A DNA stretch of 64,000 nt from Escherichia coli (GTDB taxonomy: Bacteria; Pseudomonadota; Gammaproteobacteria; Enterobacterales; Enterobacteriaceae). A program made the position numbers and the translations under genes. The stretch lies in NCBI RefSeq assembly GCF_001677475.2, contig NZ_CP015229.1. One strand, 5' to 3'. Positions within the stretch are counted from its first letter, which is position 1; the number at the start of each line of letters is the position of its first letter. The notes beneath the pieces were generated by a model. That model did not search any database and was not told the origin of the DNA. It saw only the letters and a program-made list of their open reading frames with translations. Shown here piece after piece: positions 26,225-41,961 of the stretch.

Positions 26225-26839
26225 TTAATGACACTCCATTTTATTTATTATACTACAAGCACAACGATGCACTCAGAGACGTAATCTCTGGCGCAGTCAG
26301 ATGCTAATTTATAAGTGTTAAATGTTGCTCATAACTGAAAAGCCAGGGCTTTCAGACCCGGGGGTTCGACTGGGTAATGTTTTTATGCAATTCATATGTT
26401 AAGTGTTTGTATGTTTGGTATGTATAGTTATTTTGTTTTATACATTGTATTTAGATGTGATTTAGTTTGTCAATTAATTGCATTTAAAAAATATGTTCTG
26501 TGAACAAGCATTGTTTATATACATTATGTGAATGTAATATGCGGGTGATTGAGAATGATACAGTGACATATGTAATGCGAATATAATAATTTTATTATAT
26601 GTATTGATATTGATAGAAATAGTGAAGTAATAAATCTCATAATATGGTTGTTTATGCATCACTAGAATGAAGCATAGTAATTTTCTCAATTGTTAGGGCA
26701 GGGTAATTGCATATTTAATCTTTCCTTTGCCACTTTTTCGCTAAGAATAAAATCATCTGTGCGATAACAACTAATTCTTTTAATGAATGTTTTTATTCCT
26801 GAATACTGCTCCCATAACAAGACAGGGGAGCAGACAATC

Positions 26840-27802
26840 ATGGCAATTTCTTCGCGTAACACACTTCTTGCCGCACTGGCATTCATCGCTTTTCAGGCAC
26901 AGGCGGTGAACGTCACTGTGGCGTATCAAACTTCAGCCGAACCGGCGAAAGTGGCTCAGGCCGACAACACCTTTGCTAAAGAGAGCGGGGCGAGCGTTGA
27001 CTGGCGTAAGTTTGACAGCGGAGCCAGCATCGTGCGGGCGCTGGCTTCTGGCGACGTGCAAATCGGCAACCTCGGTTCCAGCCCGTTAGCGGTTGCAGCC
27101 AGCCAACAGGTGCCGATTGAAGTCTTCTTGCTGGCGTCAAAACTGGGTAACTCCGAAGCGCTGGTGGTGAAGAAAACTATCAGCAAACCGGAAGATCTGA
27201 TTGGCAAGCGCATCGCCGTACCGTTTATCTCCACCACCCACTACAGCCTGCTGGCGGCGCTGAAACACTGGGGTATTAAACCCGGGCAAGTGGAGATTGT
27301 GAACCTGCAGCCGCCCGCGATTATCGCTGCATGGCAGCGGGGAGACATTGATGGTGCTTATGTCTGGGCACCGGCGGTTAACGCCCTGGAAAAAGACGGC
27401 AAGGTGCTGACCGATTCTGAACAGGTCGGGCAGTGGGGCGCGCCGACACTGGACGTCTGGGTGGTGCGCAAAGATTTTGCCGAGAAACATCCAGAGGTCG
27501 TGAAAGCGTTCGCCAAAAGCGCGATCGATGCTCAGCAACCGTACATTGCTAACCCAGACGCGTGGCTGAAACAGCCTGAAAACATCAGCAAACTGGCGCG
27601 GTTAAGCGGCGTGCCTGAAGGTGACGTTCCGGGGCTGGTGAAGGGGAATACCTATCTGACGCCGCAGCAGCAAACGGCAGAACTGACCGGACCGGTGAAC
27701 AAAGCGATCATCGACACCGCGCAGTTTTTGAAAGAGCAGGGCAAAGTCCCGGCTGTAGCGAACGATTACAGCCAGTACGTTACCTCGCGCTTCGTGCAAT
27801 AA
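26840..27802 (+). CDS. tauA: taurine ABC transporter periplasmic binding protein
   Basis: Start chosen at MAISSRNTLLAALAFIAFQAQA (signal peptide) giving 320 aa. Confidence 0.93.
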   Translation: MAISSRNTLLAALAFIAFQAQAVNVTVAYQTSAEPAKVAQADNTFAKESGASVDWRKFDSGASIVRALASGDVQIGNLGSSPLAVAASQQVPIEVFLLASKLGNSEALVVKKTISKPEDLIGKRIAVPFISTTHYSLLAALKHWGIKPGQVEIVNLQPPAIIAAWQRGDIDGAYVWAPAVNALEKDGKVLTDSEQVGQWGAPTLDVWVVRKDFAEKHPEVVKAFAKSAIDAQQPYIANPDAWLKQPENISKLARLSGVPEGDVPGLVKGNTYLTPQQQTAELTGPVNKAIIDTAQFLKEQGKVPAVANDYSQYVTSRFVQ

Positions 27803-31268: not shown

Positions 31269-31793
31269 GGTCTGCCTGATGTTTGTGGAATCGAGGGGCA
31301 TAGTATACCTGAAGCAGGCTGGGTGTGTTTTACGAAAGTTGTCGCGATGTTGACAAGAAGAGAATGAAAGACCGGCCTGGACATGTTTTTAATATAAATA
31401 GCAATATTTTTATATTCACTGAAAATATTTTTAATCTTTATTTATAGCTATTGGTTATTATTTTTTTTGGAGTTTGGTTGCGTTGCTATAAATTGAATAA
31501 TTAAAACTTTGTTGCATATTGATAGGATATTTATCTGGTTTGTGTCTGTGATATTTATGATGCGTATGTTTCAAAAATAACATCATCTGCAACATATTGA
31601 AATGTGGTGTTTTTATCAATTTGATGCGTGTTTTTCTCCATAAATTATATATGTCCACATTCGGACTTAGGGGAAAGAATAATTGAACCATTCGTCTGTA
31701 ACGCAGCATAATCGTTAGCGCGAAACATAATATGTTTTCTATGCATTGATAATTGATGGATCAACTTATTACGTCCCTGAGGAGGGATGACAA

Positions 31794-39595: not shown

Positions 39596-39854
39596 AAAAA
39601 CCTCCGGAAGTCATCTGCTTCTCTTCTGGTGTGATACCAGCGGCTTATGGCAAGTCTGACAGGTCATTTAGATTGTCAATATCAGAATCATGGTAAATTG
39701 ATGTTGGGAATATTCCCGAAGCGTGAATCTTCGTTGTGAGTCACAAAATGGCAACCTTAAGTTAAATTTATTAACAATTACGAAAATGTTGTCTACACCA
39801 CAGACGGTTGTTACAGAATATGCAAGGATGTTGTTTTTCGTTAACGGAGCTGCC

Positions 39855-40067
39855 ATGAATCTGCCTGTAAAAATCCGTCGTGACTGGCACTACTATGCGT
39901 TCGCCATTGGCCTTATATTCATTCTTAATGGCGTGGTGGGTTTACTGGGATTTGAAGCAAAAGGTTGGCAGACCTATGCCGTCGGTCTGGTGACGTGGGT
40001 GATTAGTTTCTGGCTGGCGGGGCTGATTATTCGTCGTCGCGATGAAGAAACTGAAAACGCCCAATAA
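39855..40067 (+). CDS. yaiZ: DUF2754 small membrane protein
   Basis: Start chosen at MNLPVKIRRDWHYYAF giving 70 aa; two TM segments. Confidence 0.8.
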   Translation: MNLPVKIRRDWHYYAFAIGLIFILNGVVGLLGFEAKGWQTYAVGLVTWVISFWLAGLIIRRRDEETENAQ

Positions 40068-40090: not shown

Positions 40091-41185
40091 TTACATTGTG
40101 GTTTTCAATGCGTTATCCGCAGCGTGACGCTCCAGCGCCAGCTCAATCAAACGTGTGATCAGATCGGTGTAACCCAAACCGCTGGCTTGCCACAGCTTCG
40201 GATACATACTGATGTTGGTGAAGCCAGGCAGGGTGTTGATCTCGTTGATCACCACTTCGTTCTCTGGGGTTAAAAACACGTCTACACGCGCCATGCCTGC
40301 GCATCCCAACGTCTGATAAGCCTGAACGGCAATCGCCCGGATCTTATCGTTGATTTCTGGCCCAATGGCTGCCGGAACTACCACTTTCGCGCCATCTTCG
40401 TCAATGTACTTGGTGTCGTAGGCATAGAAATCGCTGGTGAGTACGATCTCGCCACAGGTGCTGGCTTGCGGATTGTCGTTGCCCAGAACTGCGCATTCGA
40501 TCTCACGACCTTTGATCCCTTGCTCAACGATCACTTTATGATCGAACTCGAACGCCAGATCGACGGCAATTGCGTACTGTTCTTCACTGGTTACTTTGCT
40601 GACACCAACAGAAGAGCCCTGATTAGCCGGTTTTACAAACAGCGGTAACCCCAGTTTAGACTCCACTTCGGCAAAACTGATGTTGTGACGATTAGCGCGC
40701 GTCAGGGTAATAAATGGCGCAATGTTCAGCCCGGCATCGCGCAGCAGACGTTTGGTGACATCTTTATCCATACAGGCCGCTGAAGCCAGAACATCAGAAC
40801 CTACAAACGGTAAATTGGCGACCCGCAGCATTCCCTGCAAGGAACCATCTTCGCCCAGCGTACCGTGGACAATCGGGAAAATGACATCCACCGTCGGCAA
40901 CGGCTGACCGTTTTGCGCGTCGATAAGCTGATGTTCATGTTTACCAGGCACCTGCGCAAGGCTGGTCGCCGAAGGGCGCAACGCAATATGGGCAGGATCG
41001 TCTGCATTTAGCAGATAATTGCTGGCATCGCTGACGTGCCATTGCCCTTGTTTATCAATGCCCAGCAGCACAACGTCGAAGCGACTTTTATCAATGGCAT
41101 CGACAATGTTTTTTGCCGATTGCAGAGACACTTCATGTTCCGCTGATTTACCACCAAAAACGATTCCTACCCGCAGTTTTTCCAT
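40091..41185 (-). CDS. ddlA: D-alanine--D-alanine ligase A
   Basis: 364-aa [30 protein letters not shown]-terminus, ATP-grasp family. Confidence 0.96.
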
Positions 41186-41646
41186 CTTAAAAACCTATCC
41201 CGTCTAACACAAAGTGCATACATTACCACGACAAAACGGGGGATTCGCGGCCTTCTGACAGAATGTTGCAATCTTCTGCTGACAAAGCGTGCAACGTACT
41301 GGTGAAGAAAGTGCGTTATCTCAATGATGTGCGCAAGATCACAAAAATGATGAACGGGAAGCTAATTTATTCCTGGCTTGTATGGCCATGCAATGAGTTT
41401 TTTCTCTTAATTATAAGTTAACGAAGAGAATATATTTCATAACTTTTATTTATAATAAAGGTTGATAATTAAAAGCCTATATTTTGTGTGGGTAATTATT
41501 AAAATAAGAGAAACGTTTCGCTGGTAATCAAACAAAAAATATTTGCGCAAAGTATTTCCTTTGTCATAAAAATAATACTTCCAGACACTATGAAGTTGTG
41601 AAACATAATGTTAACTTCTCCATACTTTGGATAAGGAAATACAGAC

Positions 41647-41907
41647 ATGAAAAATCTCATTGCTGAGTTGTTATTTAAGCTTGCCCAAAAAGAAGAAGAG
41701 TCGAAAGAACTGTGCGCGCAGGTAGAAGCTTTGGAGATTATCGTCACTGCAATGCTTCGCAATATGGCGCAAAATGACCAACAAAGGTTGATTGATCAGG
41801 TAGAGGGGGCGCTGTACGAGGTAAAGCCCGATGCCAGCATTCCTGACGACGATACGGAGCTGCTGCGCAATTATGTAAAGAAGTTATTGAAGCATCCTCG
41901 TCAGTAA
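41647..41907 (+). CDS. iraP: anti-adaptor protein stabilising RpoS
   Basis: 86-aa [25 protein letters not shown]... Confidence 0.93.
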
Positions 41908-41927: not shown

Positions 41928-41961
41928 CTGTCATAAAGCTGTCACGGCCGAGACTTATAGT
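41928..41961 (+). promoter_or_regulatory. phoA promoter: Pho box (41928..41945) and -10 tatagt (41956..41961)
   Basis: ctgtcataaagctgtcac direct-repeat Pho box replaces the -35, followed by tatagt. Confidence 0.85.

Follow-up and report, generated by a model that had tools for sequence, protein, structure and literature searches.

Control of RpoS by anti-adaptors is a well-studied paradigm, and the anti-adaptor gene iraP is reported to be directly activated by ppGpp/DksA (Bougdour & Gottesman 2007 and Girard et al. 2018, cited in PMC10957080). In Salmonella, transposon insertions and deletions in iraP or rbsR permit growth on succinate, and ΔrbsR and ΔiraP each reduce the amount of RpoS protein (PMC10965054). 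The ΔrbsR mutation leaves rpoS transcription unchanged, and the authors of this 2024 study left the route from RbsR to RpoS open, so that the link stands unexplained (PMC10965054). In E. coli, a preprint describes a pathway in which ribose induces rbsD mRNA and thereby lowers RpoS translation via DsrA and ArcZ; the ribose effect requires rbsD. This rbsD-mRNA route could explain the Salmonella ΔrbsR phenotype without any participation of iraP.

The operator of the E. coli rbsDACBKR operon, rbsO, reads TCAGCGAAACGTTTCGCTGA in the K-12 sequence upstream of rbsD, and the same sequence was used as rbsO in RbsR-DNA crystals. It is a palindrome of 16-20 bp with a central CG, placed downstream of the rbsD promoter and before the start codon, where it serves repression. 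Operators of Cra (FruR), such as the proximal operator of fruB, TTCTTGAAACGTTTCAGC, share the core GAAACGTTTC and have T…A flanks with AGC in the outer half-site. The PurR half-site is GTTTGCGT. Cra, itself a LacI-family protein, activates when bound upstream of a promoter and provides a precedent for a LacI-type site in that position. In class II CRP promoters a near-consensus TGTGA-N6-TCACA site, bound tightly by CRP in vitro, is followed about 30 bp from its centre by a −10-like hexamer, and transcription of the downstream gene starts about 41.5 bp beyond the centre.

We compared with these systems the spacer that separates the divergent genes ddlA and iraP in a 64-kb stretch of E. coli DNA (the window), which is 99.8% identical to E. 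coli strain 042 across the region considered here. The spacer is ordinary regulatory DNA, and all of its components are of known kinds, namely promoters, a CRP site and a LacI-family operator motif (Table 1). It is probably a composite of three regulatory pieces that were joined when the Escherichia lineage lost two genes. The first-pass annotation had described a long AT-rich region between divergent genes with the Pho box of phoA just past iraP. The divergent arrangement and the length are exact (461 bp, 41186 to 41646), and the Pho box, CTGTCATAAAGCTGTCAC at 41928-41945, does begin 21 bp after the iraP stop codon. The AT-richness applies only to the part next to iraP: positions 41381-41646 (266 bp) have 27.1% GC, which places them in the lowest 0.4% of 266-bp windows by GC in the 64 kb, whereas positions 41186-41380 (195 bp) have 44.1%. 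The entire spacer has 34.3% GC and the window 51.8%. Equal AT-richness is seen at two further intergenic spots in the window, one upstream of tauA and one between hemB and an autotransporter gene.

Table 1. Features of the ddlA–iraP spacer and its flanking genes, in window coordinates; promoter hexamers and evolutionary assignments are predictions from comparative analysis.
Feature	Position	Strand	Basis or details
ddlA	40091..41185	−	5' neighbour of the spacer
ddlA promoter and leader block	41186..41267 (82 bp)	−	blastn and multi-genus alignment
Spurious ORF WP_001300163.1	41263..41465	+	PGAP annotation
Putative gene-loss scar	41268..41400 (right end approximate)	.	no counterpart outside Escherichia except the island at 41327-41365
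Putative orphaned upstream region of the lost MFS gene (CRP island)	41327..41365	+	nhmmer profile, comparative position
CRP site TGTGCGCAAGATCACA	41328-41343, centre 41335.5		9 of 10 core positions of TGTGA-N6-TCACA match
Putative ancestral AT-rich iraP control region	~41400..41646	+	corresponds to the MFS–iraP spacer of other genera
RbsR-type (LacI-family) operator motif AGAGAAACGTTTCGCT	41507..41522	.	rbsO match, conservation; candidate site
Distal iraP promoter	41543..41580	+	predicted −35 TTGCGC 41543-48, 18-bp spacer, predicted −10 TAAAAA 41567-72, start 41580
Proximal iraP promoter	41609..41624	+	extended −10 TGtTAACTT, TG 41609-10, hexamer 41612-17, start 41624
iraP CDS (anti-adaptor IraP, 86 aa)	41647..41907	+	ORF list, RefSeq annotation, Ribo-RET initiation peak at ATG

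The comparison set consisted of 80 IraP-encoding Enterobacteriaceae loci, one genome per species, in each of which ddlA, iraP and phoA were located. The distance between ddlA and iraP is 450-464 bp in all six species-level Escherichia loci and about 2.4 kb in most other genera. There the gap is filled by two genes, both on the iraP strand, of which the first encodes an extensin-like protein (227-235 aa, with a PF06904 C-terminal domain) and the second an MdtG-like MFS transporter (403-410 aa). The transporter scores 543 bits on the MdtG model, just below the cut-off of 571, and is therefore considered an MdtG paralogue. The MFS gene stands directly upstream of iraP in 66 of the 80 loci, which represent about 25 genera and include Cedecea and Franconibacter; both genes are present in 52 loci, and neither lies within 2.5 kb in 13 (six Escherichia, three NCU1-type Citrobacter, C. 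koseri, Intestinirhabdus, K. oxytoca and K. michiganensis). Since the MFS–iraP adjacency is so widespread and extends to Cedecea and Franconibacter, which we take to be early-branching genera, and since so few loci are without both genes, the parsimonious reading is that the two genes were lost in Escherichia. The Escherichia lineage would have lost the extensin-like and MdtG-like genes from between ddlA and iraP, and the ddlA promoter, a scar with an orphaned CRP island and the ancestral iraP control region would thereby have become one spacer. This model requires two separate deletions.

The piece next to ddlA is shared far beyond Escherichia. Blastn searches against all loci matched spacer positions 1-82 to the DNA upstream of ddlA in Citrobacter, Salmonella, Kosakonia, Leclercia, Silvania and others, and the matches end invariably at position 82-83; the extensin-like gene of other genera begins some 25 bp past this block. 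Read on the minus strand, the block contains an extended −10 of ddlA, TGG-TAATGT (hexamer 41220-41225, TGG 41226-41228), and a second conserved motif upstream of it at 41240-41266. Alignment in the ddlA direction showed CGTGnTAnnnT to be kept in all 15 of the 15 genera aligned, and a ddlA start site is predicted near 41213. A sigma-54 reading of TGGCAG in this block was discarded because its GC is at the wrong spacing.

Apart from its island, the putative scar has no blastn match in other genera among the 80 loci. It also diverges fast, with only 5-40% of columns invariant within Escherichia at 41286-41316 and 41376-41396. Searches for remnants of the lost coding sequences by tblastx and spliced alignment recovered only the inter-gene island, and short alignment blocks elsewhere in the scar, which were inconsistent among reference genomes, were dropped as noise. 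Recognisable homology in the scar amounts to only about 40 bp with modest E-values, and about 60 bp on each side matches nothing assignable. At the iraP end, spliced alignment placed spacer positions ~230/245-461 on the spacer between the MFS stop codon and iraP in Salmonella and Citrobacter, and blastn found positions 323-457 kept upstream of iraP in the same two genera. In the MFS-bearing loci where it could be measured, this MFS-stop-to-iraP spacer ranges in length from 83 to 296 bp, with a median of 236 bp, and its GC content is about 36%. Because the AT-rich half of the Escherichia spacer aligns to it, we regard that half as ancestral iraP upstream DNA.

These assignments bear on the earlier suggestion that the size of the region signals a complex promoter architecture. 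With about 82 bp belonging to the ddlA promoter and about 150-200 bp to the gene-loss scar, size is not evidence of complexity. The architecture itself is nonetheless composite, with two strong iraP starts and one weak one, a conserved LacI-family operator motif and a CRP site of high affinity in vitro.

To trace the island within the scar, an nhmmer profile was made from 34 loci in which both genes persist. It matches spacer positions 141-180 in 10 of 10 Escherichia sequences (E = 4e-5 to 6e-3); in the NCU1-type Citrobacter spacer it matches 100 bp (E = 3e-16), reaching up to the stop-codon region of the extensin-like gene. In gene-bearing genera the island lies between the extensin-like and MFS genes and consists of the CRP site followed by AATATGATGACTGGGAAGATAAAA; the conserved tail in the present spacer reads AAAAATGATGAACGGGAAGCTAA. 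The TGTGA-N6-TCACA core is perfect in 35 loci and carries one mismatch in 11 loci, including all Escherichia, and a −10-like hexamer is found about 30 bp from the centre of the CRP site in all genera. Thus the island shares the layout of class II CRP promoters, and its ancestral role was most likely that of a CRP-dependent promoter of the transporter gene. In Escherichia a possible −10, TAATTT, is present at 41363-68, from which a start would be expected near 41375. Positions 41338-41353 are invariant across Escherichia and are flanked by the fastest-evolving parts of the spacer. Furthermore, in vitro Footprint-seq described in a 2026 preprint lists precisely the CRP site of this island (K-12 position 401077, ttTGTGAtcttgcGCACAtct) as novel, with an estimated Kd of 1.2 nM (PMC12871828 Table 1). 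The Escherichia island differs from class II promoters in that it has lost the gene it served and that no start was detected from it in glucose.

Start sites of iraP were taken from Cappable-seq data for the plus strand (M9 glucose, mid-log), with U00096.2 coordinates converted by +776 to U00096.3 and by −359739 to the window; the conversion was verified on the K-12 sequence. Starts were mapped at U00096.2 positions 400543 (score 297.7), 400561 (score 3.3) and 400587 (score 167.6), corresponding to window positions 41580, 41598 and 41624, or 67, 49 and 23 nt before the ATG. An independent start-site data set, also from glucose minimal medium, has the same 23-nt iraP leader (Kim 2012); iraP and ddlA go unmentioned in the SMRT-Cappable-seq supplements. 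The hexamers of the distal promoter (Table 1) are our own predicted assignment; the block that contains them, TAAAAATAnTAC, is conserved across genera, and the discriminator TAATACT is AT-rich, with one G/C in seven bases. The ppGpp-activated iraP promoter is reportedly expected to carry an AT-rich discriminator. The start at 41580 combines a mapped start with such a discriminator, as a ppGpp-activated sigma-70 promoter of the same gene and region would, and its ppGpp dependence is taken from the literature. A TGnTAAC(G/T)TC-like element marks the proximal promoter in 58 of the 60 loci that carry the operator motif, and the Shine-Dalgarno sequence of iraP, AAGGA, follows at 41633-41637. In a scan for consensus promoters and terminators the number of hits did not exceed that in shuffled sequence, and the CATAAT that it proposed is not the −10 that fits the mapped starts.

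Upstream of both iraP promoters lies a palindrome that closely resembles rbsO. The 20-mer TAAGAGAAACGTTTCGCTGG (41505-41524) is identical to rbsO at 15 of 16 central and 17 of 20 overall positions, and it is to this extent that 41507-41522 matches the palindrome AGCGAAACGTTTCGCT with its central CG. The centre of the motif, 41514.5, has the coordinate −65.5 relative to the distal start and −109.5 relative to the proximal one. Shuffling the window 100 times produced no match with one mismatch or fewer to rbsO (0/100). The exact core AAACGTTTCG is located 114-132 bp before the ATG in 60 of the 80 loci, and of 606 control windows of 300 bp taken from these loci, only 10 contained a 20-mer match that reached 14/20. 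The motif lies 91-94 bp from the proximal TG in 49 loci and 78-82 bp from it in nine, and the sequence in between is not conserved. The motif, whose information content is confined to 16 bp, is invariant within Escherichia, is also present upstream of Salmonella iraP, and is the most conserved element of the iraP upstream region besides the promoters. A reading of the palindrome as a terminator was rejected, since it is loopless and a hairpin is impossible.

The details of the motif point to rbsO rather than to other LacI-family operators. Its right half, GTTTCGCTG, equals that of rbsO, where Cra operators have GTTTCAGC. The GAAACGTTTC core is common to Cra operators, but the flanks at iraP, …TTTCGCTG, are of the rbsO type and not the Cra type (…TTTCAGC), with A/C…G and GCT in place of T…A and an outer AGC. 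The left half is degenerate, with AGAG or AGAA versus AGCG, so that the iraP motif carries a C→A difference from rbsO. It differs from rbsO also in position, being upstream of both promoters and not between promoter and start codon. Upstream of purH, add and udk, which are reported RbsR targets, the best rbsO match is only 9-11 of 16 positions.

It had been proposed that the spacer has room for an unannotated small RNA or a leader peptide, and inspection of start-site maps and ribosome profiling speaks against both. In the plus-strand Cappable-seq data from glucose minimal medium, the three starts given above are the only ones for iraP, and no plus-strand start occurs from U00096.2 398889 to 400543, that is, from yaiZ to 41580. 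The table of Ribo-RET (retapamulin ribosome profiling) peaks lists plus-strand initiation at yaiZ, iraP and phoA and none between them. Additionally, a permissive Rfam scan of the spacer gave nothing but eukaryotic families at chance level, a terminator scan found no intrinsic terminator in it, and the iraP leader folds no better than shuffles (z = −1.1). The available data give no sign that any part of the spacer is translated or gives rise to an RNA of its own. The start-site data all come from glucose minimal medium, and a start from the CRP island is possible in other media.

That the region holds no credible ORF remains correct, though PGAP annotates one here. WP_001300163.1, a 67-aa protein with a TTG start, is a PGAP call in genomes of K-12 and O157; nothing is annotated in the spacer in the curated K-12 record NC_000913.3. 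In 042-like strains, including the present one, PGAP marks 41263-41465 as a frameshifted pseudogene, and the present strain has an ATG ORF of 52 aa (41263..41421). The strain difference in frame comes down to a run of T6 versus T7 at 41398-41403. Translation of ten Escherichia sequences revealed stops or frameshifts in strain DE17, E. albertii, E. whittamii and the cryptic clades. The 67-aa ORF matches no Pfam or NCBIfam family, and its database clusters have 677 and 66 members, those listed being named only from E. coli and Shigella. Like other spurious small ORFs of automatic annotation, from which it does not differ in any respect, it is lineage-restricted, unstable in frame, without family and overlapping regulatory DNA. 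We conclude that it is an annotation artefact.

Several other explanations were weighed against these conclusions. The two genes could have been inserted in the other lineages, the short Escherichia spacer being ancestral; two events are needed under either model, and C. koseri, Intestinirhabdus, K. oxytoca and K. michiganensis are also without both genes within 2.5 kb. However, the MFS–iraP adjacency across about 25 genera, the presumed early-branching ones among them, argues for loss, as does the correspondence of the Escherichia island to the inter-gene spacer and the reach of the Citrobacter NCU1 match to the stop-codon region of the extensin-like gene, and we consider insertion quite improbable. 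Given gene loss, the CRP island could have been put to new use in Escherichia, for example as a CRP-dependent promoter toward iraP or as a distant input to ddlA or iraP. It has stayed invariant amid fast-evolving sequence although its downstream gene was lost, it binds CRP tightly in vitro, and the spacing of site and hexamer would fit a class II promoter. From this we infer that the island has been retained because it is still functional; it may fire toward iraP at high cAMP, or act as a decoy site. On the other hand, Cappable-seq contains no plus-strand start near 41375-41377 in glucose-grown cells, in which CRP-dependent promoters are weak, and the site centre, at about −122 relative to the predicted ddlA start and −244 relative to the distal iraP start, is out of range for standard CRP activation. 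Core matches with one mismatch are moreover expected about twice per 64 kb by chance. We therefore hold re-use of the island to be possible rather than probable.

A small RNA or translated leader peptide that regulates iraP might still be hidden in so long a region, and tiny ORFs do occur in both iraP leaders (ATGAAGTTGTGA at 41590-41601 and a 22-aa GTG ORF at 41598..41666), with start-site data limited to glucose minimal medium. Yet no ORF holds its frame across Escherichia, and together with the lack of plus-strand starts, Ribo-RET peaks, Rfam matches, terminators and a stable leader fold this makes such a product very improbable. That WP_001300163.1 is a real gene, merely frameshifted in the present strain, is scarcely credible. 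It is annotated in the PGAP-annotated E. coli genomes examined, under every match listed, and it has sizeable database clusters, but in K-12 it begins with TTG, its frame hinges on a homopolymer run and is broken elsewhere in the genus, it spans a scar without counterpart in other genera, and it has neither a protein family nor a Ribo-RET peak; conservation within it peaks on the CRP island, without a codon-position pattern. As for the operator motif, the palindrome could be bound by another LacI-family regulator (Cra, PurR or a MalI-like protein) or another factor, or RbsR could bind it without consequence. The core shared with Cra operators and the degenerate left half leave room for this, as do a position atypical for a simple repressor, the lack of any report of RbsR at iraP in the literature searched, and the alternative route from RbsR to RpoS via rbsD mRNA. 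In contrast, most genera share with rbsO an identical right half, …ACGTTTCGCTG(A), which is unlike that of Cra (…TTTCAGC) or PurR (…TTTGCGT), and the match of 15 of 16 positions is far closer than those at purH, add and udk. We judge a different regulator, or binding without effect, to be unlikely, though it deserves to be kept in mind.

We return to RbsR as the candidate ligand of the motif. The literature searched contains no mention of RbsR binding at iraP/yaiB, and genomic SELEX is reported to give only five RbsR sites; published data tables may already include the iraP site. In K. pneumoniae a start has been mapped immediately after the motif (centre at −8.5) that is active in glucose medium, and the left half of the motif forms the extended −10 for that start. 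Because this start is active in glucose, where RbsR should be bound, it counts against strong repression by RbsR in that species. A simple repressor role is also unlikely in E. coli because the motif lies upstream of the polymerase footprint. Any effect of the motif on iraP is more likely to be activation or modulation, and we infer from its resemblance to rbsO that RbsR may bind there and modulate iraP. The Salmonella genetics suggest a positive effect, in which case RbsR at the motif would raise iraP, and ribose would lower IraP and hence the stability of RpoS. If RbsR activates iraP, this route and the rbsD-mRNA route would act in the same direction. We thus offer, as a tentative proposal with somewhat less than even chances, that RbsR helps to set the level of IraP and that ribose controls RpoS proteolysis directly via iraP, in parallel with the rbsD-mRNA route, across much of the Enterobacteriaceae.

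Taken together, the results give the length of the ddlA–iraP spacer a concrete evolutionary explanation, which is history and not hidden genes. They indicate that a widely propagated 'hypothetical protein' annotation between ddlA and iraP is spurious, and an orphaned CRP site explains the 'novel' high-affinity CRP site that genome-wide binding maps place there. The deeply conserved candidate RbsR motif at iraP is apparently undescribed. We know of no mention, in the 2007 work of Bougdour and Gottesman or the 2018 work of Girard and colleagues, of an RbsR-type operator, a CRP site or a gene-loss origin for this region. If the proposed role of RbsR is true, it would supply the missing mechanism for RbsR-dependent RpoS accumulation in Salmonella, and the question of how RbsR acts on RpoS becomes testable through a conserved site whose spacing to the iraP promoters is fixed.

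In K. pneumoniae MGH78578, the yaiB/iraP start has been mapped at NC_009648 position 366604 (PMC3415461 supplement). This position lies 102 nt 5' of the ATG and immediately downstream of TGGTAAAACGTTTCGCT. Because the mapped start directly follows this sequence, the RbsR-type motif, a putative operator, overlaps both the −10 and the start site in Klebsiella, an iraP promoter arrangement that differs from the one in E. coli.

Across the IraP-encoding loci compared, the centre of the putative operator lies 91-94 bp from the proximal iraP promoter in one class of loci and 78-82 bp from it in a second. The shorter class comprises loci L011, L060, L062, L064, L073-L075, L077 and L083, set against the remaining loci, and represents several genera. 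The gap between the classes is 11-14 bp, which corresponds only roughly to one helical turn, and the difference between E. albertii and E. coli is exactly 11 bp.

Additional elements were located in the iraP control region. The conserved block that E. coli has in common with Citrobacter and Salmonella contains a perfect TATAAT at 41451-41456, for which there is no recorded start site. A 2010 bioinformatics paper (PMC3098098) used FITBAR to predict a 'strong' NagC site between iraP and ddlA; the sequence at this position is variable among Escherichia. Two tiny ORFs are present in the distal iraP leader, where the sequence differs from genus to genus, and neither has a peak in the published Ribo-RET (retapamulin ribosome-profiling) table consulted.

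Features of the ddlA-iraP spacer and the iraP start (window coordinates)
Feature	Position	Sequence	Remarks
Upstream ddlA motif	41240-41266 (−)	AACATTATGGCAGAAGGCCGCGAA; E. coli version CATTCTGTCAGAAGG	upstream of ddlA extended −10
CRP-site tail, 20-25 bp	41344-41365	AAATATGATGACTGGGAAGATAAAA; E. coli version AAAAATGATGAACGGGAAGCTAA	equivalents in comparison loci L029:956-980, L016:873-897
Conserved block	41436-41470	TTCATAACTTTTATTTATAATAAAGGTTGATAATT; consensus CATAACTTTnnATTATGnnAnnGCGTGAnnATT	also in Citrobacter and Salmonella
Predicted NagC site	41480-41502	aataattacccacacaaaatata	FITBAR
Tiny ORF	41590-41601	ATG-AAG-TTG-TGA	within distal iraP leader
22-codon ORF	41598-41666		GTG start in distal iraP leader; overlaps iraP start out of frame

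The extensin-like and MdtG-like MFS genes are also missing in Citrobacter sp. NCU1, Awk 4 and R56 (L012:1903-2500, L013 and L014), where a ddlA-iraP spacer of ~600 bp is collinear with that of Escherichia and the inter-gene relic is longer (about 100 bp). The absence in these Citrobacter may reflect either an independent deletion or sharing by recombination.

Elsewhere in the window, GC content falls to a minimum of 23-24% in two further strongly AT-rich stretches, 26271-26850 and 31271-31770. In the strain 042 annotation, the first lies upstream of tauA beside a pseudogene for a PIG-L deacetylase, and the second separates hemB from an autotransporter gene. The longest yaiZ ORF (39723-40067, GTG start) encodes 114 aa and the annotated protein is shorter, at 70 aa; its ATG (MNLPVKIRRD…) is backed by the Ribo-RET table.

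On the ddlA side, the motif upstream of the extended −10 was found in nearly all genera compared. It is inconsistent with a sigma-54 promoter and may be where a regulator of ddlA binds. In the cross-genus comparison, the left half-site of the CRP site was less strongly conserved than the tail 3' of it. Manual translation from the ATGATG within this tail gave ORFs of 7, 8 and 25 codons, and this variable length rules out a conserved peptide. The CRP-site tail may instead be a second protein-binding site or a promoter spacer.
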